DNA of 64,000 bases, from contig CAXXJS010000061.1 in the NCBI GenBank assembly GCA_963662665.2, positions 96,001 to 160,000 on the forward strand, written 5' to 3'. This document shows positions 13,277 through 26,974 of the stretch, one piece after another (positions within the stretch are counted from its first letter, which is position 1; each line of letters begins with the position of its first letter). The stretch is from Candidatus Latescibacterota bacterium (GTDB lineage Bacteria; Latescibacterota; UBA2968; GCA-2709665). Below the pieces are notes generated by a model. The model was given only the letters and a program-made list of their open reading frames with translations, was not told the origin of the DNA and searched no databases. The translations under genes were made by a program, and so were the position numbers.

Positions 13277-14086
13277 ATGGCAGAAATGCACGATACAAAG
13301 CGGATGGCATCGCTCATTGAGGCTGCACGGGAAGATGACGTTCACCAGAGTTTCTCGTACCACGGGTGGGTTGTGCCCGAGTACAAATGCCTGTGCATGA
13401 CGATTCCAAAGGTTGCCTGCACGACGGTAAAGGTGACGCTCTACCATCTGGCTGGAAACCCGGCGCCGGCGGAACCGAACGACGTCCACGGTCTCGATAT
13501 TGGGTTGTTCCTTGCGGAATACAGCACTGAAGAGATCATCGAGATGCTCACGTCACCGGAATGGGTGAGATTCTGCTTTGTCCGCAATCCGTACCATCGA
13601 CTGCTGTCCGCCTACAAGTCGAAGATCGGAAACCCGTCGGACGGCCAGTATTTGTGGCTGCGCGATGCGATCCGGGGGAAGTTCAATTACCCTGATGGCG
13701 ATGGATGTCGCGCCGTCACGGCAACCTTCGCAGAGTTCGTTCATTTCCTGTCTGACTGTAACGCACGGGTACGTTACGAATTTAAGCCGGACGCAATCTA
13801 TGACGGACACTTCAATGCTCAGTCACGGATTCTCAAGCAGGACTTGATCAATTATGATTTCATCGGCCGTTTCGAGAATTTCGCAGACGATTTCAAGACG
13901 GTCCTGACATCTATCGGCGCTCCGGAGGAAACCATCGCCCTTGCCTCGGAGAAGCGGAACGCAACGGCCCACGTACCACTGAACGTAGCGTACATTCGCG
14001 AGTTGGCGGATCTGACCCATGACCTCTACCGCAACGACTTTGCGGCGTTCAAATACGACAGGGATAGCTGGCATTGCGACTCTTAG
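13277..14086 (+). CDS. Sulfotransferase family 2 protein
   Basis: IPKVACT (5'-PSB), FVRNPYHRLLSAY (3'-PB), YDFIGRFENF and DFAAFKY motifs. Confidence 0.85.
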   Translation: MAEMHDTKRMASLIEAAREDDVHQSFSYHGWVVPEYKCLCMTIPKVACTTVKVTLYHLAGNPAPAEPNDVHGLDIGLFLAEYSTEEIIEMLTSPEWVRFCFVRNPYHRLLSAYKSKIGNPSDGQYLWLRDAIRGKFNYPDGDGCRAVTATFAEFVHFLSDCNARVRYEFKPDAIYDGHFNAQSRILKQDLINYDFIGRFENFADDFKTVLTSIGAPEETIALASEKRNATAHVPLNVAYIRELADLTHDLYRNDFAAFKYDRDSWHCDS

Positions 14087-14108
14087 CCCCAATCCGAGAG
14101 AGCAACCC

Positions 14109-14915
14109 ATGGCTTCGCCTGAAACGCCACCCCCTCTCGGCACGTTTTCCTGGTTCGGCTATGAACTGCCTCTGCCTGAACGCATGAGGCTGATCGGGCA
14201 GAGTGGTTTCAGCCACACCTTTCTATGGATCGGAAGTGAGGAACCCCTGGTTGAGTCCGGTCGTGCTCACGAAATGCCCCGGATGGCGGCGGATGCCGGA
14301 CTCGCCGTCGATCACGTCCACGCACCGTACGAAAATGCGAATGCATTCTGGTCAGACAGGGCCAGCGAACGCAACGCTTTTTTAAATGAGAACCTTAAGC
14401 TAATCGAGTACTGCAGCCGGCATTCCATTTCCTGCATTGTGCTTCACGTAACAAAGGGGCCGACACCGCCTCCGCCTCATGAGGAAGGCCTGGGGATTTT
14501 CCGACGATTGGGCGAGGCGGCGGCAGAGAGCGGGGTCGCGCTAGCTCTTGAGAATACAAGGATTGACGATCGCCTGGATTTCATTCTGAATAAACTCCCT
14601 ATGGACAGCCTGGGTTTGTGCTACGATAGCTCACACGACTACCTGTATTCCAGTTCTCCCGGTACAGTACTCGGGAAGTGGGCGCATCGTCTCATCACGA
14701 CGCATTTCTCGGACACTGATGGTCAGGCCGACGTTCAATGGTTGCCAATGAAGGGAATCGTGGATTGGGATGCCGTTGCGAAAGCATATCCCTCGTCGCA
14801 CCCGGGCCCGGTTATGATCGAGGCCGTGCCCAAGGACCCCTCTCAATCGCCGGCGGAGTTTTTGGCTGAGGCGTACCAGGCAGCGGTAAAATTGAGGGAG
14901 AAACTGGTTGGATAG
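14109..14915 (+). CDS. Sugar phosphate isomerase/epimerase family TIM-barrel protein
   Basis: LALENT, CYDSSH, THFSD and GIVDW motifs. Confidence 0.85.
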   Translation: MASPETPPPLGTFSWFGYELPLPERMRLIGQSGFSHTFLWIGSEEPLVESGRAHEMPRMAADAGLAVDHVHAPYENANAFWSDRASERNAFLNENLKLIEYCSRHSISCIVLHVTKGPTPPPPHEEGLGIFRRLGEAAAESGVALALENTRIDDRLDFILNKLPMDSLGLCYDSSHDYLYSSSPGTVLGKWAHRLITTHFSDTDGQADVQWLPMKGIVDWDAVAKAYPSSHPGPVMIEAVPKDPSQSPAEFLAEAYQAAVKLREKLVG

Positions 14916-14924
14916 GTACTCACC

Positions 14925-15710
14925 ATGACCGAAGACCCCTACAGTCTGGCGGCGAAGCACTACGACGCGGCGTATAGCGCGAAGGAGGACCTGGTCGATA
15001 GGGATTTCTATCTCGATCTGGCCGGGGAGTATGGCGGGCCGGTCCTCGAGCTCGGCTGCGGGACCGGCAGAATTACCCTGCCGTTTGCGCGGCAGGGTCT
15101 TGACGTAACGGGGGTCGATGCTTCCCGTTCGATGCTGGCGATCTTGCGGGCAAAGATCGACGAAGAACCTGCAGACATTCAGCGGCGTATACGAGTGGTT
15201 GAGGGCGATTTCAGGACCGTTCATCTGGGCGAAGGATATCCACTGCTGGTTATTCCGTTCAGACCGATGCAGCACATGTACACCGCGGAAGATCAACTTG
15301 CTGCCCTGACAAACGCGGCGAGCCACCTGGCGGACGGGGGAGTCCTCGCGTTTGACGTGTTCAATCCCCGCTTCGACAAGCTGCTATCCGGTGACGGCGA
15401 AGAACACCTGGAACTGGAATGGCCCACAGACGGCGGGACTGGCAGGACGATCCGACGGTACTTTGTGAAGGACGGGTACGATCCGGTCAATCTGGTTTTT
15501 TCAGGCCGGTTTATCTTCCGCATGTATGAGGGCGACCGGATAATTACAGAGGAAACCGAAAACTTCAAAATGAACGTCTATACTTATCCGCATCTCAAAG
15601 CACTTTTCTACGCGTCCGGTCTTGAGAGCGTGGGGGAATTCGGTTCATTTGATCGGAAACCGATCGGGCCCGACATGCCTGAGATGATATTTCTCTTGAA
15701 ACGTCAGTAA
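14925..15710 (+). CDS. Class I SAM-dependent methyltransferase
   Basis: VLELGCGTGR, GVDAS..ML and GGVLAFD motifs. Confidence 0.9.
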   Translation: MTEDPYSLAAKHYDAAYSAKEDLVDRDFYLDLAGEYGGPVLELGCGTGRITLPFARQGLDVTGVDASRSMLAILRAKIDEEPADIQRRIRVVEGDFRTVHLGEGYPLLVIPFRPMQHMYTAEDQLAALTNAASHLADGGVLAFDVFNPRFDKLLSGDGEEHLELEWPTDGGTGRTIRRYFVKDGYDPVNLVFSGRFIFRMYEGDRIITEETENFKMNVYTYPHLKALFYASGLESVGEFGSFDRKPIGPDMPEMIFLLKRQ

Positions 15711-15798: not shown

Positions 15799-16212
15799 AT
15801 GAAAACTGTCGTGCGCATCTCAGGTATTCTGATCACGCGTGATGGCCTGTTGCTCGTGAAATGCGATGGTATCAAGGACTACCTGTTGCCGGGCGGAAAG
15901 CTCGAGCCCGGTGAGTCGGACCTGGATGCATTGCGGAGGGAACTCCTCGAAGAGCTCAACATTGTCCCGACGGATCCCGAATTCTTCGGCGAATACGAGC
16001 GTGTAGTTCGTCCTCCGGAATCTGCAGAGACGTACAGGGTTAGCGTTCGAGCTTACGTGGCAGGCTTTGACGGAGAACCGGTCCCGGACCTGGAAGAGGT
16101 ACTTGAAATCGCCTGGGCGTCTATGGCCGATCTCGAATCGGGGAAGTATCGCTTGAATCCTATCCTGCGGAATTTCATTGTCCCCGAACTCAAGCGACAG
16201 CAACGGCTTTAA
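15799..16212 (+). CDS. NUDIX hydrolase
   Basis: PGGKLEPGESDLDALRRELLEELN. The stop codon overlaps the MITE left end. Confidence 0.85.
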   Translation: MKTVVRISGILITRDGLLLVKCDGIKDYLLPGGKLEPGESDLDALRRELLEELNIVPTDPEFFGEYERVVRPPESAETYRVSVRAYVAGFDGEPVPDLEEVLEIAWASMADLESGKYRLNPILRNFIVPELKRQQRL

Positions 16213-16404
16213 CCTTGATTCGACAAAACCAGCAACTCTGCGCCGCGATTAAACCTTCCGAAATGGGCCGAAATGGTCGTCCAAAAGGACTTTTTTTCAG
16301 TTCACATCCAGTGACCTGGTGTATCCTGGTAATCCGAAGTCTAATCGCCTTTATCTACTTGCATGAATTCGGTTTTACTTCTCCGAAGAATTACGAATCA
16401 AGGT
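16212..16404 (+). mobile_element. 193-bp MITE, copy 1
   Basis: Perfect terminal IR ACCTTGATTCG/CGAATCAAGGT, flanked by TA on both sides; three further copies in the window. Confidence 0.8.
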
Positions 16405-16546
16405 TAATATCTTCAGCACCAACGCTGTCGACTTCCATAACCCAAACAACTGAGGGTCCGAAAACCGTCGAGAATCCAATATGTGTTGCTCCAGGACAGT
16501 CCAATGAGGCAGTATCCCACAACTTCCGCGCAGAGAGGGGCGTAGC

Positions 16547-17695: not shown

Positions 17696-18482
17696 ATGCT
17701 GAGGAAGCCGCGATTGGAGAAAACCGTGAAGACCTTTATCCAGTCCGGCACCAGGTTTCTCGTAGAGGTCGGGACTAAACCAGAGCCAGCCCTGGTTCGA
17801 TGGACGACATGGGGCAACAGCGACATTCAACAGTCTTATCTCCTTTCCACATCCGATGGATCTATTCTGATTGATCCGATTCGGCCCATTGGTAGACAGG
17901 CTCTGAATGCCCTGAGGGAACATGCCGATGGTCGATTTCAAGCTGTAGTCTGCACGAGCCCAAACCACGAACGAGATGTGGAGTGGTTCCGCAAACGGTT
18001 CAAGATACCTGTATACGGGCCGGAGTTGGCCCCTGCTAGGTCACGCATCAGGCTGAATTCAGATGAACTGTATCGAGATGGCGATATGCTTTCCGGAAGC
18101 ATCCGCGCCATCAGTTCAGGAGATAAACGAGGCGAGATGTGGCTGCTGTGTAGGGCTTCCAGGACATCCAGGGTCCTGATTTGCGCTGACTCGATATATG
18201 GACAATCCCGGAGGGGTGGGTTCGATGGCGCGACCGTACCGCACTGGATTCAGGAAGGCGGGATCCGGTTGCAGATGAGTGGCGAAGTCAGTCCCGGCGA
18301 AATGAGACGCAGGTATGAACGTCTTGAAGATTATGAGTTTGGGATCGTCCCTGAACGGTCACAATCCGCGTCCTATTGAGAATGCGAAATCTGCACTTGA
18401 AACAGCGCTGACCCAGGGCAAATATGAGGCGTATCCGAAAGGCGCGTTCAGTGTTATCGCGGCAGATTTATCGGGGGAATGA
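17696..18482 (+). CDS. Metallo-beta-lactamase-fold protein (one frameshift at CCC 18349-18351)
   Basis: ILIDP, TSPNHERD and CADS motifs; LNGH continues in the shifted frame to TGA 18480-18482. Confidence 0.65.
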
Positions 18483-18542
18483 ATTCATGGGAGCACTCGA
18501 TACCCTCTGTGCCTATACTAAATGAGACAGTACCCCTTTTAA

Positions 18543-18734
18543 ATGGGAATTGTAGTGGGTACTACGGATGAGCGCAAGAAGAAGCCGGTCGTAGGGATTG
18601 TTGATAGTCGGTATAGGCCAGCGAAGGCGGAGATGGAAGAGGAGATTGTGATAGATGCGTGCCCGGACGAGTTGCTACGGGCGGCTGTTCAGTATGAAGA
18701 ACTTCGGATTGTTGATCCAAAAGGGAAGCGGTAG
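18543..18734 (+). CDS. Small hypothetical protein (63 aa)
   Basis: YRPAKAEMEEEIVIDACPDELLRA; natural-looking composition. Confidence 0.5.
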   Translation: MGIVVGTTDERKKKPVVGIVDSRYRPAKAEMEEEIVIDACPDELLRAAVQYEELRIVDPKGKR

Positions 18735-18854
18735 GATAACGCTGACAACAAAAAGGGTAGGGTTCGGAAAATTAAAAAACCTGCCAGTATGTTACTTCTG
18801 GCAGGCTGTTGATAGCGTTATGGGAGGTCAGGTTACTTTTTGAGATTTTCTTCT

Positions 18855-19100
18855 TTAAACATGACCGTAAAATTCATTCCGGTCTATCTGCAATGCTCTC
18901 AAAACTGCTCTGATTTGTGGTCTCCTGATTTGTTCATTGGGTTTGCCTGCTGTTCCTGAATATAGTAATTCTCCGTCGACTGTGCGGGTAAAACCCCAAT
19001 AAGTTCCAATAACATCGGTGCCGCTTTCCTGAATATCACATTCGCAATCGAAATTTTGTATTAAACACTCTTTGAATTGTTCATACGTCAGATAAAACAC
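18855..19100 (-). CDS. Divergent HicA-like toxin
   Basis: 81 aa; C-terminal IRRPQIRAVLRALQIDRNEF resembles the HicA end helix; lies 10 bp downstream of the HicB-like gene. Confidence 0.5.
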   Translation of the reverse strand: MFYLTYEQFKECLIQNFDCECDIQESGTDVIGTYWGFTRTVDGELLYSGTAGKPNEQIRRPQIRAVLRALQIDRNEFYGHV

Positions 19101-19110
19101 AGCGAATCCC

Positions 19111-19467
19111 TCATGCGCAGACGCGCGAGTTCGCTTTTACAACAGGCATCAAAGATGTTTTCCATACATCAAGAGCAAGTCGACGATGATTGCGTTTTAG
19201 CTGAGCGTCCTCGGCTTCCTCAAACATGGTCCAGAATTTCTCAGGGGCCTTCTCAATACCCTGTAAGATTTCCCGGTTATTTGTGGCATCAAAATGGCAA
19301 TGAGTCATAATTGTAACGTAAAACCGAGCCCTGACCTGGGGTATTGTCTGTCCTTGAGCAACTATATCATATTCAAGACCCTGAGCAATCCAAACATCTT
19401 CGTTCCTATACAAAAGGACGCTTACTTGAATGACATCTGACAACGACCTTGTAGATTTCCCGTTCAT
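19111..19467 (-). CDS. HicB-like antitoxin (partial RNase H fold)
   Basis: VLLYRNEDVWIAQGLEYDIVAQGQT..Q and AP..FW motifs; GGGAG RBS. Confidence 0.65.
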   Translation of the reverse strand: MNGKSTRSLSDVIQVSVLLYRNEDVWIAQGLEYDIVAQGQTIPQVRARFYVTIMTHCHFDATNNREILQGIEKAPEKFWTMFEEAEDAQLKRNHRRLALDVWKTSLMPVVKANSRVCA

Positions 19468-19506
19468 TGCGTACTCCCGTGGTTGTCACTTGCATATCTT
19501 TTCACA

Positions 19507-19536
19507 AAAGTACGTTAACGGAGTACGGTTTGTCAA
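19507..19536 (-). promoter_or_regulatory. Candidate sigma70 promoter of the hicB-hicA-like pair
   Basis: TTGACA-18 bp-TACTTT on the minus strand, with the palindrome CGTTAACG in the spacer. Confidence 0.45.
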
Positions 19537-19920
19537 GTATAAAAATCTAGAAACGCATGTACGTACCGGGTTGTACAGACCGTAACAGGAAGGGGAACAA
19601 AGTGCGGGGATCGTTGACATGTGACATTGCGCTATAATTTCCTTTTTGAAATGAAGAACGATGAAGATGGCGAAGGAACGCCTAACGTCAACGGATGTAT
19701 CAATAGGTGCTTGCCGACGGGGCTTCGATTAGGCTGCGGATCTAAACTCGCGGAAATGGAAACTCGCAGTTGGTGTTATACAAGCTCGATCAAAATGAGC
19801 GTGCTAAGCGTGATCAAGCTTGTGATCTGGATTCCCAAAAGCCATCGAATTCAGGACAGAATATAAAATTGGCCTTGCTCGAGACTGTTCAAGCGTGCAT
19901 CCATCTGCTCAATAATCCCG

Positions 19921-22023
19921 TCAAACCGCGACGAGCGGCCGTTCTATTCCGAACAGCCCCAAAAGTTCATCGCTATTCAATTGGGCGGACAGATCCATCG
20001 ACACATCGTCGATGAGTTGGTTAAACAGTTCCCGTTTGTTCTCCAGAATATTGTCAATACGCTCCTCAATAGTTCCGATGCAGGAATACTTGATGACGTT
20101 GACTTTGACCGTCTGGCCGATGCGGTGGCTTCGGTCTTCGGCTTGACTTTCTACGGCGGGATTCCACCAACGGTCCAGGTGAATCACGTAGGACGCCTCC
20201 TGAAGGTTCAATCCCAGGCCGCCCGCCCGCAACGACAGGACCAACACTTTGTGTTCGCTGCTGGTTTTGAATCGTTCGATGACTTCGGTTCGCTCATACG
20301 GAGGCAAGTCTCCGGTGATGGTAAGCGGAATGAAATCCCGCATGTGGTTGACCACGGCGCCAACGCCGGATGTGTCGCTGACGTACTGCGAAAAGATCAG
20401 CGTCTTGTGTCCCTGGGCTACAAGTTGGTCCACGCGGTCCTTGATGTCGGCCAATTTGCTGGATTCACCGGTCTTTGGGTCGGCGTTGCAGATTTGTTTC
20501 AATCGAGTGATGAGCTCAAGCACGTGCCGCACGTTGACTTCCGCGCCAAGAGACTTCAGGTAGACGATGCCTTCCTGTTCGGCCTTATCGTAGCTCTCGC
20601 GTTGGCGGGAGCCCAACTCGATGTCGACCTTGGTGGTCTGCTTGACAGGAAGATCCTTTAAGACCTCCGCTTTTTTGCGTCGAACCTGCAACTCACGGTG
20701 TCGCCTTTGCAATTCCACACCTGGACGGTACCGTTTTGTCACTCCAGTGCAGTCATAATCAACAAACTCCAGTATCGAGGCCAGCTCCTCTTCGCGATTC
20801 TCCATTGGGGTGCCGGTCAGAGCCCACGAACGATTTCTTTTCAACCCCTTCAGGGCATCGCTCGTTTCGTTGCGGTTCTTGATCCTTTGAGCCTCGTCCG
20901 CTACGACCACGTCCCAGTTCTTGCGACCAACAAGAGATTGGGTGCTGAAGTCGGTCCTCAGGGTATCGTAACTCACGAGTGTTATCTCTTTCTCGGCATC
21001 CCACTGCCAACTGCGGTCCGATACAGAACCACGGATGATGATGGCGGAAAGCTCAGGCGCCCATTTTTCGATTTCGCGTCGCCACTGATTCAGCACGCTT
21101 GCGGGAGCCGTGATCAAACACGATTTGATTTCTCGACGTGCCCGGAGAATCCGTAAGGCTGTAATCGCCTGTACGGTCTTACCCAGTCCCATGTCGTCGG
21201 CCAACAGTAGCCGGCGGTTTTCCAGCAATGCCTGGACACCCTGCCGCTGGAAGGGCATCAAGTCGCCCGCCCAATGTAGCGGGATCGTTTGGGAAGGATC
21301 GGGTGGATTGGCCAGAACGTTCCACAGACGTTCGGCCAGAGTTAAGTCGGGTCGTGGGCCTGAACTTGCCTTATGGATATTCTCACGAATTGCGGAGTAA
21401 TCGCTGGCTGGATATCCGGGGCGTTCGGACAATGAAGATAAGCTCACTACAACTGCCAGACCTGAAAGGTCGGTGACGGCGTGAATCCGATCGTCGTCAA
21501 ACGCTACGTCCAATCCTGCAGTCGCCCGTTCGAAAGGTTCAGCGGGATTGCCGCGGTCCAGTATTTCTACGAGAATTTGGCTCGCTTCGTTATCCGGATT
21601 GGGTTTTTCCGTAACCCAAAACAGATCAAAACCTTCGTTATGCGGGTCGTCCGATTCGCCATTGGGCCGAACACCCGACGTTGCGATACGGCAAAAGGGT
21701 ACCTGTACCTTTATTTCTTCGTTGATCGATCCATGAGGTACTTCATCGGCCCGAGCGAGTATCAACGTTGGCACAGAAGTGACAGCTCTGAGTAGTGATC
21801 CTGCCAGCGATTGCAAGATTTCCGGCTTGACGATTGCAAGTTTTCCGCCAGACCCCGAGTAAACCGTCCGTGTGAAGCAGAAGTCCATTGGTTCACCCTG
21901 CGCGGATGTCTGGAACAGCGCCGCACGTATGCCGTTACCGCCCTTTTCTTCGACGAACCGCAGCCAGGCCACCGTGCCGGATCCCGTATTCACCGATTTC
22001 CGTTCATTGAAAAGTTCCGGCAA
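19921..22023 (-). CDS. SNF2-family (SF2) helicase/ATPase with ~240-aa unknown N-terminal region
   Basis: LLADDMGLGKT, DEAQRIKN, LTGTPMEN, LKQICN, LIFSQY, GGLGLNL and WWNPAVESQAEDRSHRIGQ motifs. Confidence 0.92.
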   Translation of the reverse strand: MPELFNERKSVNTGSGTVAWLRFVEEKGGNGIRAALFQTSAQGEPMDFCFTRTVYSGSGGKLAIVKPEILQSLAGSLLRAVTSVPTLILARADEVPHGSINEEIKVQVPFCRIATSGVRPNGESDDPHNEGFDLFWVTEKPNPDNEASQILVEILDRGNPAEPFERATAGLDVAFDDDRIHAVTDLSGLAVVVSLSSLSERPGYPASDYSAIRENIHKASSGPRPDLTLAERLWNVLANPPDPSQTIPLHWAGDLMPFQRQGVQALLENRRLLLADDMGLGKTVQAITALRILRARREIKSCLITAPASVLNQWRREIEKWAPELSAIIIRGSVSDRSWQWDAEKEITLVSYDTLRTDFSTQSLVGRKNWDVVVADEAQRIKNRNETSDALKGLKRNRSWALTGTPMENREEELASILEFVDYDCTGVTKRYRPGVELQRRHRELQVRRKKAEVLKDLPVKQTTKVDIELGSRQRESYDKAEQEGIVYLKSLGAEVNVRHVLELITRLKQICNADPKTGESSKLADIKDRVDQLVAQGHKTLIFSQYVSDTSGVGAVVNHMRDFIPLTITGDLPPYERTEVIERFKTSSEHKVLVLSLRAGGLGLNLQEASYVIHLDRWWNPAVESQAEDRSHRIGQTVKVNVIKYSCIGTIEERIDNILENKRELFNQLIDDVSMDLSAQLNSDELLGLFGIERPLVAV

Positions 22024-22058
22024 TTCAGTTTCCCCCAGGAAGGAGAAATGGTCGCCTT

Positions 22059-23327
22059 CTAATCAGTGTCGTCCCGGGACTCTCGTTCGAGGTCGGCGTT
22101 CTCTGCATAGGGGTGTCGGAACTCCTCGCCCTCGGTGTTGGGTTCGTAGTCGGGATAGTGCCGCATCAAATCCCATTCGTTAATGGCGGCGCGGACCTTG
22201 TAGCGCATCCGATTCTGATATCCGGCGCCGCCGGCCCTAATTGGCACCGGCGGAGCATCCCAGCCGTAGGCCTCGGTGTAGAGTCTCCGTAAATTCTCCA
22301 TGGTCAGTTGGACGCCCGCGTCTGTTGGTTGATTCAACGGCGAACAACCTCGTTCCAGCAATCTCATGCCGGTAATAGCGTCCGCCTTCAAATCCCTGTA
22401 ACGATCTGTGCTATCCAACTTTGGCTCCACGTAGTCGCGGTCTTTTTTTCCATCCGTGATGATTACGGGTGCAAAGTCGTCGGTGACGGAACCCACGGTT
22501 CTCAGACCGGGATACGACCCGTTGGCGGCCTGTCCCAACCAGCGAGCCAGCTCGGCGTAGGACCTTCCCCGTTGCAGGAGAGTGTACGAACCGACGAGTT
22601 CGATCTCGTCCAGCAGCACCACCCAGCCCCTGTAACCAGCAGCCCTGATCAGCTGGACGGCGAAACGGAGACGCTGGGGCGGCAGGTCTGCAGCCCGGGG
22701 CGCTCGGAAGGTGTAACTCTGCTTTTGCCCTATCTGCCTGAGGCCGTTCTTGACCCGGGAAATGTAGATTCTGTCGCCCGCCCAGAAGTTCTCGATCTCA
22801 CTGTTCAGCTCGAGGTCGCGCGACCGTTCGTGAACGAGCAGACTGGCCGGGAACATCTGGCTCAATCCGTTAGAGTCGGTGTCGTTTGACCACTTAAAGA
22901 AGCTGGCGTATTCTTTCGAATCGGGCTTTAACGCCTGTCCCAATTCCTCCATCAACCGGCCGGTACGGTCGGGCATCTGGGTGTTATCCACAGCCGACTT
23001 GAATACCTTGCCCAGGTCGTATAGCGGCGTCTCCTTGCTGATAATCACCTTGCTACAGACGAAACCCAGGGAAAGGGCCCGATCTTCCAGGTGAGTCAGC
23101 AGGTGAGACTTGCCGGAGCCGAAATCACCGGAGACCAGCATCCCGAAAGTGCCGGACGAAAGGTCGACGCCTTCCGTAGCCCTGGTCAACATGCCTTCGA
23201 ACTTATCTTCAGCCTCAGGCTGGTTGCAGCCCAATATCTTCACCGCGTCCCTGTTGGGTACGCCGTTTCGGAGAGCCTCCAGGGCCCGCCTGGAGGCGAA
23301 TTTGTGTTTATCGGCCAAAACCGCCAC
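22059..23327 (-). CDS. P-loop ATPase, DUF2791/BrxD-like
   Basis: RRALEALRNGVP start, Walker A GDFGSGKSH, SKETPL, and AGYRGWVVLLDEIE Walker B. Confidence 0.85.
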   Translation of the reverse strand: MAVLADKHKFASRRALEALRNGVPNRDAVKILGCNQPEAEDKFEGMLTRATEGVDLSSGTFGMLVSGDFGSGKSHLLTHLEDRALSLGFVCSKVIISKETPLYDLGKVFKSAVDNTQMPDRTGRLMEELGQALKPDSKEYASFFKWSNDTDSNGLSQMFPASLLVHERSRDLELNSEIENFWAGDRIYISRVKNGLRQIGQKQSYTFRAPRAADLPPQRLRFAVQLIRAAGYRGWVVLLDEIELVGSYTLLQRGRSYAELARWLGQAANGSYPGLRTVGSVTDDFAPVIITDGKKDRDYVEPKLDSTDRYRDLKADAITGMRLLERGCSPLNQPTDAGVQLTMENLRRLYTEAYGWDAPPVPIRAGGAGYQNRMRYKVRAAINEWDLMRHYPDYEPNTEGEEFRHPYAENADLERESRDDTD

Positions 23328-23341
23328 TGCCTTCCACCTTC

Positions 23342-24310
23342 CTATGTCAGCCGCACCAGGGATGCGACCGGATTTACCCGGTTCCTATCGCGAACATCGT
23401 CCATCACCCGCGTGCGCAGGGCCTCATAGATACCGTATCCCCGGGACCTGCGATCGCCACTGTCGTCGAGAAAATCGCTGTTGGTTACGACTACCAGTAC
23501 CGTGCTCGTCAACCGGTCAACGCCGTCGACAAATTCCCGTAGTAACTCGTAGTGTTCCATCGCCATGGCTCTGGTGTAGTAGCGCAGACCGTCCCTCGGA
23601 TTTCTGGCCACCGTTACGCGAGCGTTGTCAAACAATACTACCGTTCCCGAGTGCCCCACATGATGAATCCAGTAGAGGGCCGATTCGATGAAGTATCTGG
23701 CCGTGTTGCGATTGATACTGGTGTAGATGGAAAAGGGCCGGACGCCACTGATTCGCGTGTTCTCTCCCGTCAGCCAATCCAATAGGGGCTCACCTGTGTA
23801 CACGCCACGGCTGTTCTCTTCCATGCAAAGATGGCTCATACACACCCGGAAATCTCTCGCCATCTTTGTGTTCCTGAAGACAGTGTTCTGAATCTTCGGC
23901 CTCAGGTTTCCGAGCACGAACTCCGATTCGAGACCGTTGGCTGTTGCGATGGAGTCGAAGACATTGCCGTCCACGCCGGGAGGAATTCCGTCAATCCGGT
24001 AGCCCTGCTCGGTGGCGAGCCTCAGGATCATACGGCGAGCCAGCAGCCGCCAATCGACCTGGCTGGCGAACCTGAAAAAGAAATCCTGCGGCATGTGCGC
24101 CCGCATCGTCTCAGCGTTCAATTTAATGAAAATATAGTCCAATTCATCGCAGTTGGCCTCCGTTTCTGCGTACAAACCAGTCCTGGAACCCTCGTTTGAT
24201 GGCACTGCAAACTTTATCGACGCGCCGCCACAGCGGACATACGACGACAGGTATTCTTCGTTAATGACCTGAAGCCAGTCCTTGAGAGAGATTGAGATTG
24301 TGTTGTACAT
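23342..24310 (-). CDS. DUF2791/BrxD-like protein with degenerate Walker motifs
   Basis: EEYLSSYVRCGGASIKFAV, WLTGE, VGHSGTVVLFDN, YELLREFVD and YEALRTRV match the family pattern, but there is no GxxxxGK[ST]. Confidence 0.7.
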   Translation of the reverse strand: MYNTISISLKDWLQVINEEYLSSYVRCGGASIKFAVPSNEGSRTGLYAETEANCDELDYIFIKLNAETMRAHMPQDFFFRFASQVDWRLLARRMILRLATEQGYRIDGIPPGVDGNVFDSIATANGLESEFVLGNLRPKIQNTVFRNTKMARDFRVCMSHLCMEENSRGVYTGEPLLDWLTGENTRISGVRPFSIYTSINRNTARYFIESALYWIHHVGHSGTVVLFDNARVTVARNPRDGLRYYTRAMAMEHYELLREFVDGVDRLTSTVLVVVTNSDFLDDSGDRRSRGYGIYEALRTRVMDDVRDRNRVNPVASLVRLT

Positions 24311-25110
24311 CAGTCGTCCCTTGCAAATCGAATGCCAAAGTACTTGATATCCTGGCCCTGTGGACCCACAAAGGTGAATACGTTTCTTCCGCCCCGGGTG
24401 CCAGTGGATGCGTGGAAAAATACTTTGGCGCCTGACGTAGTTTCTGTAACTCCGCTTGTCTCCAACTGGTAGAGGTCACGGGCAAAGTCAATTTGTGCAT
24501 AATCTCGCCCGCTACCCGGCAGTGAGGTGAATAACCTGTAGATTCTTGCCAAAAGTACCACGCGACCGGAGCCGCCCTTCATGAGTCCATCCGAAGCATC
24601 TTCCTTCACAAGCTCCAGGTAAACTTTGTACAGGGCTTCCAAAAACCGTTTCGCGGAGAAGCGACTGCGCTTCTGCTGGTTTGCAACCAGCAGACCGGCC
24701 AGGTAGGAAGGCTTAATGGTCGAGATTTTCTTGTTGTCAATTCGGATCGCCTCATCCTCGGGAAATATTCGCACGATGGATGGGTGTGAGATTAACTGTT
24801 CGTCCCGCAAATGGATTTCCAGACCCCTTTCCAACGCGACACGACGTAGCTCGTGTGTATAGCCTCCCTTGAGGTATTCAGCTACTTCATCATCTTCATA
24901 GGGCCAGGACCGGATAGCGTCCGTCACTACTTGCGTCAGGTTCTCAAGCGCAACATTGAGTCCGGCTCGTGCCTTCTTGATAGCGCCTATGTTACCCTCT
25001 TTTGCGGCCTTTTGCAGGCGTCTGGTCAAATTCACCAGGTTCGTAGCGGACTGGCGGGCTGATTCAGCTGCATTTTCGGAATTGTCAAATGCTTGTCCGA
25101 TATTGTCCAT
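24310..25110 (-). CDS. Hypothetical protein (helical N-terminus, possible winged-helix C-terminus); first gene of the operon
   Basis: 266 aa from ATG 25110; its TGA overlaps the next ATG at 24310; IYRLFT..DYAQIDFARDLYQL motif. Confidence 0.8.
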   Translation of the reverse strand: MDNIGQAFDNSENAAESARQSATNLVNLTRRLQKAAKEGNIGAIKKARAGLNVALENLTQVVTDAIRSWPYEDDEVAEYLKGGYTHELRRVALERGLEIHLRDEQLISHPSIVRIFPEDEAIRIDNKKISTIKPSYLAGLLVANQQKRSRFSAKRFLEALYKVYLELVKEDASDGLMKGGSGRVVLLARIYRLFTSLPGSGRDYAQIDFARDLYQLETSGVTETTSGAKVFFHASTGTRGGRNVFTFVGPQGQDIKYFGIRFARDD

Positions 25111-25248
25111 GTCTTTTTCCTGCGTTCGAAAGATTCGTCGAATAAGCGACGTGATTAATGGTGGCGCAAACACGGCAGTCACGGGAACGTCTTCCTGTTC
25201 CTCCGTAATGCATGTAGCCGAAATTGCCCCGCGGTGGCTGGCTTATTC

Positions 25249-25277
25249 AGCATAAAGTACTACCTGCGTGTTGTCAA
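25249..25277 (-). promoter_or_regulatory. Near-consensus sigma70 promoter of the four-gene ATPase/helicase operon
   Basis: Minus strand TTGACA (25277-25272)-17 bp-TATGCT (25254-25249). Confidence 0.65.
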
Positions 25278-25359
25278 GCGAATCGTTCGCAATAGTCAGA
25301 AAGCCGCCGCCGTAATGGCCGCGCCTTACTTCTGTGATTCTGTTCGATGGATCGTCGGT

Positions 25360-26634
25360 TCAGTCAATCAGGCCATGTCTGCGAAGCACGGCGTCGACAT
25401 CATCCAGCCCCGTTCCCTTCCTGGTTCCCTCGAACTTTAATCCCGCATTCAACAGCCTGTCGATCACGGCCGGGTAGTCGGCCCCGGGTCTTGGCGAATT
25501 GATCGCGAAATGCAGGGTCGTGCCCATTGCGGTGCCGCCGAATTCGTTCCGCAATTCGAGCAAGGGGCCGTGATCGAGGATCAGGTCCATGGTGTCCGGA
25601 TGTCCCTGGGAAGCGGCCCACATCAGGGCTGTCATCTTCCACGTGGCCTGTCCGTCCACGTCGACGCCCTTTCCCAGCAGGTATTCGGCGATATCCGTCC
25701 GTCCGAACCGGCAGGCATCTTCAAATGCGGCCGCCAGTTCCGCCTCAGATACGCCGCGTTCTTCAACGAATTCCGTCGTCAGGTCCAACCGGCCCAGTCC
25801 CGCGGCCATCGCGACGTTCTTCACCTCCGCCCCCAGGCGCACCAGCGCGGCTGCCGACTCAGGGTACCCGAATTTGAGCGCCAGACGAACCGGCGCGCCG
25901 TCGTTCTTAACGCCATCCACTTTGGAACCCGCCTCGACGAATATCTCGATCAGTTCGGTCGCCACGCCGCGATAATGGGGATGAACGCTGGTCACGAGCG
26001 CCAGCATCGGCGGTTCTCCCGAGTCGCCCGGCCCGCACAGGGCGTCCACCTCAGCGCCGGCATCCAGCAGACGCCGCGCGATCTCCGGCGCATTGGCGGG
26101 TGACCGCTGGCGAAAGTCCTCAATTCCGTTGGCGGCGAGGTAATACAGCAGCGTCGCCCGGTGAATGCGCGCCGAATGGGCGTGGGCCAGAGCCGGATTA
26201 CCGCGCAGCAGCGCTTCGAGCGTTGGGAGGTCCCCGTCGACGACGGCATCGGCCGCGACCTCGAACTCAGCCCCGGCGTCGGTCTCGCGCGTATCTTTTT
26301 CGACGAATCTGGCGAACGCATCCCAACTCGCAAAGCTGTGGGCTCCCGCGATGAGAAACTGAGCCCTGGCCAGCGTGAGCCCGTCGCCATCATCGCCAGC
26401 CTTCTCCGACATTTCAATGGCGGCTTTTTCGACTTCGCCGATCGCCCGTTCCCAACTGCCCCGCACAAAATCCGTCAGGTCGGGTCCGGACACACGGACT
26501 ATCTCGCCGAGCCAATCGTTACAGAACCCCTTTACAGCGCTGGCATTCTCCGACCGGGTTGCCTCGGTGAGTCCCTCCGCCAATTTCGTGTAATCCGGGA
26601 GATTTGGACGGGCGGGTAACGGAAGGGTGTCCAT
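25360..26634 (-). CDS. Ankyrin-repeat protein
   Basis: N-terminal LPARPNL..LARAQFLIAGAHSFASW module, then ankyrin repeats (TALMWAASQGH, LLDAGAEVDA). Confidence 0.85.
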   Translation of the reverse strand: MDTLPLPARPNLPDYTKLAEGLTEATRSENASAVKGFCNDWLGEIVRVSGPDLTDFVRGSWERAIGEVEKAAIEMSEKAGDDGDGLTLARAQFLIAGAHSFASWDAFARFVEKDTRETDAGAEFEVAADAVVDGDLPTLEALLRGNPALAHAHSARIHRATLLYYLAANGIEDFRQRSPANAPEIARRLLDAGAEVDALCGPGDSGEPPMLALVTSVHPHYRGVATELIEIFVEAGSKVDGVKNDGAPVRLALKFGYPESAAALVRLGAEVKNVAMAAGLGRLDLTTEFVEERGVSEAELAAAFEDACRFGRTDIAEYLLGKGVDVDGQATWKMTALMWAASQGHPDTMDLILDHGPLLELRNEFGGTAMGTTLHFAINSPRPGADYPAVIDRLLNAGLKFEGTRKGTGLDDVDAVLRRHGLID

Positions 26635-26974
26635 GGAAAGGTCCTCTAGATAAAGAGCGGTAAGACGGGAGACGGAAGACGTGAATGGATATGAGTGCCC
26701 CGTGCGTTTTCATTTCTTGCCGGAGGCATAAAGGAAGACTCAATCGGGCAAGGACGTCTTCTCCCGTCTCACCTCTACCCTCTCACGGCTTTCAGGTTTT
26801 TCCTCTACAGGTCTTATATCAAGCTATACAATCCAGCCCACCGTTTCAAGTTCTATGGCGCTTACGCTTCAGGGCAGTCGAACCCGCCCGCGTGGTTCCT
26901 GTTTTGGATTCTTGCCCCCTTTGAAATCCATTTTCGCAGTAAGAATCAGGAGCGATTGTGTTATATTGACAGCT

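Follow-up and report, generated by a model that had tools for sequence, protein, structure and literature searches.

A 64,000-nucleotide stretch of a Candidatus Latescibacterota genome (contig CAXXJS010000061.1; the whole stretch is called the window below) contains a cassette of four genes, A to D, whose order is conserved across many bacterial phyla. They code for a protein of no annotated family, a BrxD-like protein that lacks a P-loop, a BrxD-like ATPase with intact motifs, and an SNF2 helicase preceded by a domain that is predicted to fold like endonuclease V (EndoV). The chances seem to us evenly balanced that the cassette is a mobile accessory module for surveillance of, or defence against, foreign DNA, of the class that joins a BrxD/SngB ATPase to a helicase. 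Within this class it is probably an undescribed variant and, judged by sequence, its novelty would lie in two protein families and in the domain combination.

According to the list of open reading frames (ORFs) and their translations, the cassette consists of four co-directional minus-strand ORFs that span positions 19921–25182. Its features are as follows (aa, amino acids):

25249–25277, minus strand: promoter-like site TTGACA-17-TATGCT, 10/12 matches, upstream of A and inside the presence/absence segment described below
24310–25110, minus strand: gene A, 266 aa from the ATG at 25110
23342–24310, minus strand: gene B, 322 aa, BrxD-like, PF10923
22059–23327, minus strand: gene C, 422 aa, BrxD-like AAA+ ATPase, 14 bp after B
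19921–22023, minus strand: gene D, 700 aa, TTG start, 35 bp after C
21439–22023, minus strand: EndoV/PIWI-like RNase H-fold domain (fold prediction), D residues 1–195
19954–21288, minus strand: SNF2 helicase core, D residues 246–690, with GLGKT, DEAQ and QAEDRSHRIGQ

These coordinates agree with the first-pass annotation of the window, which had described four tightly linked minus-strand genes: the stop of A and the start of B overlap by one base at 24310, and the next two gaps are 14 bp and 35 bp. An alternative upstream GTG would extend A to 290 aa, but the ATG start is favoured by comparison with homologs, which are mostly 266 aa long (nearly all 263–268 aa) and align from that Met. The TTG start of D agrees with the 'MP...' start of its homologs. 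The TTGACA-17-TATGCT site reported in the first pass is indeed present at 25277–25249 with 10 of 12 matches; taken alone, the motif is weak evidence, since a promoter scan of that region gave nine promoter-like sites against 5.0 expected.

Conservation of gene order and variants of the cassette

The cassette was followed in two sets of loci. In the near set, drawn from a genome collection, A is 44–97% identical to its counterpart in the window (108 loci, 80 kept). In the distant set, for which a metagenome collection yielded at least 566 relatives and 80 loci were retained, A is about 32% identical to A of the window. B directly follows A in 79 of the 80 near-set loci, C follows B in 77 of 80, and D lies within 3.5 kb in 64 of the 75 loci in which C is complete and followed by at least 1000 nt. 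The distant set shows the same A-B-C order, with D next in all 29 loci that satisfy this requirement for C and the sequence after it; the remaining loci end too early. The order of genes around homologs of the 266-aa gene A, which the first-pass annotation had singled out, is thus kept in both sets. Moreover, when flanking ORFs of the 80 near-set loci were clustered, only A, B, C and D proved widely common (63–69 loci each); the next cluster occurred in eight loci, and no fifth conserved gene emerged. Together with the conserved order and a promoter-like site of its own, this fits the earlier description of a self-contained unit. Within the near subfamily, protein C retains 55–75% identity among at least nine phyla.

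Some loci depart from the four-gene pattern. In a Nitrospirales locus with A-B-C only (L025), the next genes are unrelated and code for a DUF4143 ATPase and a major facilitator superfamily transporter, and in a Terriglobia locus (L019) no SNF2 match was found within the locus. In a Chloroflexota locus with A-B-C only (L049), a convergent gene of 687 aa (13300–15363, minus strand) occupies the usual place of the SNF2 gene; its product has an NgoFVII/PLD-like nuclease domain and weak hints of a P-loop ATPase. This gene could serve as an alternative effector, or it could be an unrelated restriction gene.

A weak match to A in other genera of Latescibacterota led to a different cassette, represented by loci L161 and L162. 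Its A-like protein of about 300 aa aligns with A by hhalign with a probability of 97.5% (E 5.7e-12, 225 columns). It is accompanied by two BrxD/SngB ATPases, both of which bear a P-loop (PF10923 E 1.6e-55 and 2e-22; SngB E 2.1e-33), and by a helicase of 1,893 aa. The N-terminal part of this helicase matches BrxHI (E 2.9e-87) and SngC (E 3e-73), and its C-terminal part is a superfamily 1 (SF1) helicase of the DpdJ/MkoA type. Protein C of the window aligns best with the second ATPase copy of the variant, and B with the first, active copy (by tblastn in the case of B). The joint presence of an A-like gene, BrxD/SngB ATPases and a BrxHI/SngC-type helicase links the window cassette by descent to the Shango and bacteriophage exclusion (BREX) type 2 modules.

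The four proteins

Protein C matches PF10923 (BrxC_BrxD) with E 1.7e-17 and 63.9 bits against a gathering score of 22.2, and its Walker A (GDFGSGKSH) and Walker B (LLDEIE) motifs are invariant in 56 homologs. Protein B matches the same family over residues 148–321 only (E 4.9e-8, 32.7 bits against 22.2); it has no P-loop and reads LLDN where C has the Walker B sequence LLDE. The pair of a dead and an active DUF2791 (PF10923) protein seen in the first pass, with GSGKS and LLDEIE in C and no P-loop in B, is therefore real. It is also general: the P-loop is present in none of 130 full-length B copies and in 115 of 116 C copies. The dead state of B thus appears to be an old and maintained feature, and a P-loop lost from all 130 copies speaks for an inactive subunit with a function and against decay. 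A direct hhalign comparison of B with C gave a probability of 11%, aligned around the Walker B region only. On the strength of the Pfam match, the gene position and the tblastn match to the first BrxD copy of the variant, we regard B as a likely BrxD-like paralogue of the ORC/Cdc6-type AAA+ ATPases.

The core of D matches both lobes of an SNF2 helicase in Pfam (SNF2-rel_dom PF00176, 158 bits; Helicase_C PF00271, 70.7 bits). With motifs I, II and VI (GLGKT, DEAQ and QAEDRSHRIGQ) also in place, D is by its sequence an SNF2 helicase, as the first-pass annotation had it. A variable linker (residues ~196–245) separates the core from the N-terminal domain. For the first ~250 residues no Pfam family was found in 51 of 51 homologs, and the ESM Atlas returned nothing above 0.80 for the domain. 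Its AF2 model, built from 51 sequences, has a pLDDT of 79 (above 90 in the core) and a beta-beta-beta-alpha-beta order. The top Foldseek matches in PDB are EndoV structures (4xpu, E 7.9e-5; 3hd0, 3goc and 6ozg; probability 1.0, E 7.9e-5 to 8e-4). PIWI domains of short and long Argonautes (the short-Argonaute complexes 8i88 and 8jkz, and also 5vm9 and 5ux0) are matched as well. For EndoV and PIWI together, E-values run from 7.9e-5 to 1e-3 over 110–190 aligned columns. TM-scores against the EndoV and PIWI matches are low, about 0.2–0.33, which makes this an assignment of fold and not of family membership.

Endonuclease V catalysis depends on conserved acidic residues, with one Asp on strand 1 and another following strand 4. 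In 96 sequences of the D domain, which represent two subfamilies, conservation of polar residues is limited to R/K22, R52, E94, E162 and R166, and no Asp is conserved. Measured against what is known of RNase H-fold nucleases, this pattern speaks against two-metal catalysis of the classical kind and makes both EndoV membership and nuclease activity doubtful. The claim of the first pass that the cassette holds no recognisable nuclease is therefore to be qualified: the N-terminus of D folds like endonuclease V or PIWI, but there is no conserved Asp and no clear nuclease. In 61 ORFs the domain is fused to SNF2; 35 further ORFs carry it separately, upstream of SNF2. These separate ORFs (<450 aa) measure ~180–200 aa in 33 of 35 cases and sit between C and the SNF2 gene, in the distant branch and in five near-set loci. 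The occurrence of the two parts either fused or split is a strong sign that they work together. Two further arrangements occur in the distant subfamily: in L129 (10074–11534) the SNF2 gene directly follows C and no EndoV-like domain was detected, and in L097 and L156 an extra 0.8–0.9 kb lies between C and the EndoV-like gene.

Protein A is the least tractable of the four. Its predicted structure (AF2, pLDDT 86) falls into three parts: a long helical hairpin (residues 4–67), a small alpha/beta part (residues 83–146) with conserved E87, D103, D125 and Q145, and a helix-helix-beta-wing end (residues 187–263) that in the model looks winged-helix-like. No family in Pfam or PADLOC matched A at E<=0.1, and NCBIfam gave only two noise matches far below cut-off. 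When 41 diverse A members were compared with families at E<=10, no TerB family was among the 25 families listed of 54. The whole model found nothing in PDB and BFVD by Foldseek at E<=0.001; the helical hairpin probably dominates this search. Profile searches of PDB sequences with A, and likewise with the N-terminal domain of D, gave matches at chance level only, and the ESM Atlas returned only unnamed 'hypothetical protein' clusters for A (0.97). The family is nonetheless large. It comprises 236 clusters at 90% identity, all 'hypothetical' or unnamed, and 836 representatives at 50% identity (E<=0.001), of which 604 reach E<=1e-10 and none is annotated. Nearly all representatives are stand-alone proteins of 250–280 aa.

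The conserved acidic residues prompted us to consider A as a PD-(D/E)xK nuclease (E87...D103...D125-x-K127), an assignment that was not supported. The predicted strands map poorly onto the canonical core, K127 is not invariant, a distant A-like protein has Asn at the position of D125, and Foldseek gave no nuclease match.

Distribution and surroundings

Comparison with genomes of the same genus that lack the cassette delimits the segment in which it resides. Their flanks are collinear with the window, homology stops at 18472 and resumes at 25297, and the interval measures 688 bp there compared with 6,824 bp in the window. The segment is thus a presence/absence difference at one fixed site within the host genus. 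The additional features are:

18473–25296: presence/absence segment, 6,824 bp, with the cassette, the promoter-like site and a 45% G+C tail that holds two small ORFs
19111–19467, minus strand: small ORF of 118 aa, downstream of D
18855–19100, minus strand: small ORF of 81 aa, downstream of D

At the segment boundaries, neither direct nor inverted repeats of at least nine bases were found. The G+C content is 47% at 18001–20000 and 45% at 18473–19920, compared with 56% for the whole window; this low-G+C tail belongs to the presence/absence segment and not to the conserved cassette. The first-pass annotation had taken the adjoining small ORFs for a toxin–antitoxin pair. This reading was not confirmed, as neither matches any Pfam family, toxin and antitoxin families included, at E<=5. 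Among loci L001–L166 both ORFs occur only in the close relatives L004 and L005; they are lineage-specific passengers outside the conserved cassette.

Matches to A were found in 15 of 168 Latescibacterota genomes; they are strong in nine of the 15 species of the same genus and in one other family. No match to A was found in six same-genus genomes with a completeness of at least 95%, two of which are single contigs. On a larger scale, a quick maximum-likelihood tree of C (56 rows) places the Latescibacterota clade within Dehalococcoidia (support 97) and mixes Proteobacteria with Acidobacteriota, and for Chloroflexota no fewer than six label changes are needed. Even so, the tree as a whole keeps phylum labels clustered, with 10 changes against a minimum of eight. 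The tree may be read as occasional transfer between phyla followed by vertical descent.

Near-set hosts include Latescibacterota, Dehalococcoidia, Binatia, Caldilineaceae, Entotheonella and Nitrospirales, names that we take to be typical of marine sponge microbiomes. Two 'sponge metagenome' runs contain 35–39% of the sampled words of the stretch. The sharing of the near subfamily among phyla suggests gene exchange within one habitat. As to expression, four RNA-library runs from two studies contain contigs 90–95% alike over 19709–23969 (D, C and part of B), and one metatranscriptome contig crosses the C/D junction. These contigs come from relatives and may reflect DNA carry-over, so they give a weak hint that a related cassette is expressed.

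The genes around the cassette are mostly on the plus strand, as the first pass had noted in describing the cassette as inserted against the orientation of its surroundings. An ankyrin-repeat gene lies directly upstream, also on the minus strand (25360–26634). It is a syntenic flank that is likewise present in cassette-less genomes and is therefore no part of the system. Its product matches the PADLOC candidate PDC-M72A (E 3.7e-12) through the ankyrin repeats only. We tallied the nearest upstream and downstream ORFs of the cassette (81 loci, 150 of 153 ORFs listed, naive ORF calls, no matched control), and the outcome is mixed. Defence-type genes among these 150 comprise REase_I (type I), type IIG, mad2/mad3, AriA, AbiLi, type IV restriction, PIN and HNH, and one of the 150 neighbours scanned matches DrmMI.

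Two repeats were also observed in the window. A sequence of ~200 bp at about 16209–16407, flanked on both sides by plus-strand genes, has dozens of listed copies in each genome at 77–86% identity; searches of five out of five same-genus genomes gave 41–44 matches each, mostly to this element. From its sequence it looks like an interspersed intergenic repeat of the miniature inverted-repeat transposable element (MITE) or repetitive extragenic palindrome (REP) kind. A second repeat, ~100–150 bp long, lies at about 26650–26800 between the ankyrin gene and a pyridoxal phosphate (PLP) decarboxylase gene and has many same-genus copies at 71–91% identity, being especially abundant in genome G052.

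Possible functions and relation to known systems

A role in defence is suggested by kinship with Shango, by the modular exchange of helicases and by the accessory distribution. The restriction, toxin and abortive-infection genes seen among some immediate neighbours would be in keeping with it. In such a role, the live ATPase C and the P-loop-less B might form a hetero-oligomer on DNA, while A, through its coiled coil and winged-helix-like end, could supply recognition of DNA or of a target. A, B and C together would then load or switch on D, which would act as an active SNF2 translocase on double-stranded DNA. The EndoV/PIWI-like domain may read something unusual in a nucleic acid, for example an end, nick, flap, lesion or hybrid; having no conserved Asp, it probably acts by binding and not by classical two-metal cleavage. 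Translocation by D could block replication of the invader or pass it to host nucleases.

A bolder proposal, which we put forward only tentatively, takes A-B-C as the core of a widespread and so far unrecognised surveillance machine. Here an ORC/Cdc6-like oligomer of live and dead ATPases and a new DNA-binding adaptor would recruit interchangeable motors: an SNF2 translocase with a non-cutting EndoV/PIWI-like reader, a BrxHI/SngC-SF1 double helicase, or none nearby. If so, the EndoV/PIWI-like reader would let a helicase recognise foreign or aberrant DNA without a guide, which would be a new mode of recognition.

Several observations weigh against the surveillance or defence reading. A-B-C stands without D in 11 of the 75 near-set loci, which come from Vicinamibacterales, Nitrospirales and, in one case, Chloroflexota, and the EndoV-like domain was absent genome-wide from six of six A-B-C-only genomes, while four of four positive controls gave one match each. 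It follows from the D-less genomes that the helicase is not obligatory and that A-B-C is the invariant core. The resemblance of C to named ATPases is limited: the match to SngB (E 7.4e-5, 20 bits) covers the P-loop region only, and the score of 58.9 bits against NCBIfam BREX_BrxD (NF033438) compares with a cut-off of 350 (B scores 22.5 bits), so C is not a BrxD equivalog. The possible E...D...DxK pattern of A is lost in the variant, which has Asn for D125, and the EndoV-like domain has the missing Asp described above. The flanks of the cassette in the window are metabolic genes (glyoxalase, NUDIX, a small-molecule-type methyltransferase, PLP decarboxylase, GFA and GNAT), and many immediate neighbours of the cassette across the loci have metabolic or housekeeping roles (epimerases, oxidoreductases, sulfatase, iPGM, AcrB, Pol A, FtsK and CinA). 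Searches of 72,556 plasmid records and 50,697 phage records did not find A. Finally, the cassette holds no clear nuclease or other killing effector.

The lack of an evident effector that would kill the cell or cut the invader is the main weakness, and it keeps alive a rival explanation in terms of genome maintenance or DNA repair, which we consider unlikely. The EndoV-like domain would find damaged or deaminated bases or stalled intermediates, and an SNF2 motor controlled by the AAA+ proteins would clear the site in the manner of RapA or Mfd. The EndoV fold match, the housekeeping neighbours, the absence of recurring mobile-element genes and the failure to find A in plasmid and phage collections would all suit such a module, and the best NCBIfam helicase matches include the non-defence SNF2 proteins SCO1167/SCO6262 and pilus_reg_Snf2, both far below cut-off. 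On the other hand, the distribution is patchy (nine of 15 sister species, 15 of 168 genomes in the phylum), presence and absence differ cleanly at one site, the C tree conflicts with taxonomy across phyla, and helicases are interchangeable in a cassette akin to BrxD/SngB and BrxHI/SngC. Patchiness, clean presence or absence, tree conflict and helicase exchange are typical of accessory conflict systems, not of core repair.

It is also improbable that the cassette is a divergent member of a named system, either Shango or a detached BrxD-BrxHI pair of BREX type 2, set apart by sequence drift only. Shango protects Pseudomonas and E. coli against phages (PMC10250203; 10.1101/2022.05.11.491447). Its SngA-SngB-SngC operon codes for a small accessory protein, then an ATPase of the BrxD/SngB family and then a large helicase, an order that the cassette mirrors. 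Moreover, C weakly matches SngB, and the variant L161 with its A-like gene matches both SngB (E 2.1e-33) and SngC (E 3e-73) strongly. However, SngA is TerB-like, whereas A is unrelated or undetectably related to it, with no match to TerB, TerB_N or TerB_C in Pfam and PADLOC at E<=0.1. The ATPase of the cassette is doubled, one copy being permanently dead, and SngC is a DEAD/DEAH helicase (DEAD/Lhr type), in contrast to the SNF2 helicase here with its added EndoV/PIWI-like domain, fused or preceding. SngC is not among the best 25 of 46 PADLOC families matched by D.

As for BREX types 2 (Pgl) and 6, the cassette shares with them the BrxC_BrxD family (PF10923), to which both B and C belong, and the linkage of ATPase with helicase. 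PMC12839542 describes BrxD as a stand-alone ATPase of the ORC/Cdc6 AAA+ type, tightly linked to BrxHI and proposed to be a helicase loader. BrxHI is Ski2/Lhr-like, whereas the cassette helicase is SNF2. Searches of the four proteins against Pfam, PADLOC and NCBIfam found none of the hallmarks PglX/BrxX, PglZ and BrxC, nor is PglX, PglZ, PglW or BrxC conserved near the cassette in the 80 loci. The same three databases bear out the first-pass observation that the four proteins include no methyltransferase, PglZ or TerB. Its further claim that the architecture is not a named system stands in part. PADLOC 2.0 (2023) has no model covering A, and we found no description of the cassette in the literature on BrxD or on DUF2791 with SNF2, where supplementary tables (PMC12839542, PMC10853773) may nevertheless list such neighbourhoods; against this, the variant ties the cassette to BrxD/SngB and BrxHI/SngC.

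ORC/Cdc6-type ATPases accompanied by a helicase resemble replication-loader sets. Slightly less probable still than membership in a named system is that the cassette serves replication initiation, loading or counter-defence of a mobile genetic element rather than host defence: it moves between phyla and its ORC/Cdc6-like pair with a helicase looks like a loader set (an analogy also drawn in PMC12839542), but the 150 nearest neighbours listed include no recurrent integrase, transposase, relaxase or other gene of an element, the segment boundaries have no terminal repeats, the plasmid and phage searches did not find A, and the cassette stands alone in the chromosome at a site fixed in the genus.

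Beyond the BrxD-containing systems, D resembles ZorD (Zorya I), DpdE, DrmD (DISARM) and BrxHII, which are SNF2 helicases of defence systems. Against PADLOC the core of D matches ZorD with E 6.6e-85 and DpdE with E 3.2e-66, and only the helicase core (D residues ~246–690) aligns with ZorD, DpdE and DrmD. Unlike the Zorya, Dpd and DISARM proteins, D carries neither an Mrr domain nor a nuclease domain of another kind, and it begins with a different N-terminal domain. Their partner genes (ZorABC, DpdA-K and DrmABC/DrmMI) are not conserved beside the cassette in the 80 loci. With endonuclease V and the PIWI domain of (short) Argonautes, the N-terminal domain of D shares the RNase H-like fold by Foldseek; it differs from them in having no sequence-level Pfam match (0 of 51) and no conserved Asp, and there is no MID/APAZ partner.

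The cassette would add two unannotated families, A (836 representative clusters) and the EndoV-like domain, to the known parts of conflict systems. Compact, very well conserved and abundant, it lends itself to asking how BrxD/SngB ATPases work with helicases in Shango and BREX type 2. The question is made testable by the obligatory pair of dead and live ATPases, by an A protein shared with a BrxHI/SngC-type variant and by an EndoV/PIWI-like domain that is either fused or separate. Should A-B-C prove to be the core of a common machine, then Shango and the BrxD-BrxHI pair of BREX type 2 would be branches of one larger modular superfamily.

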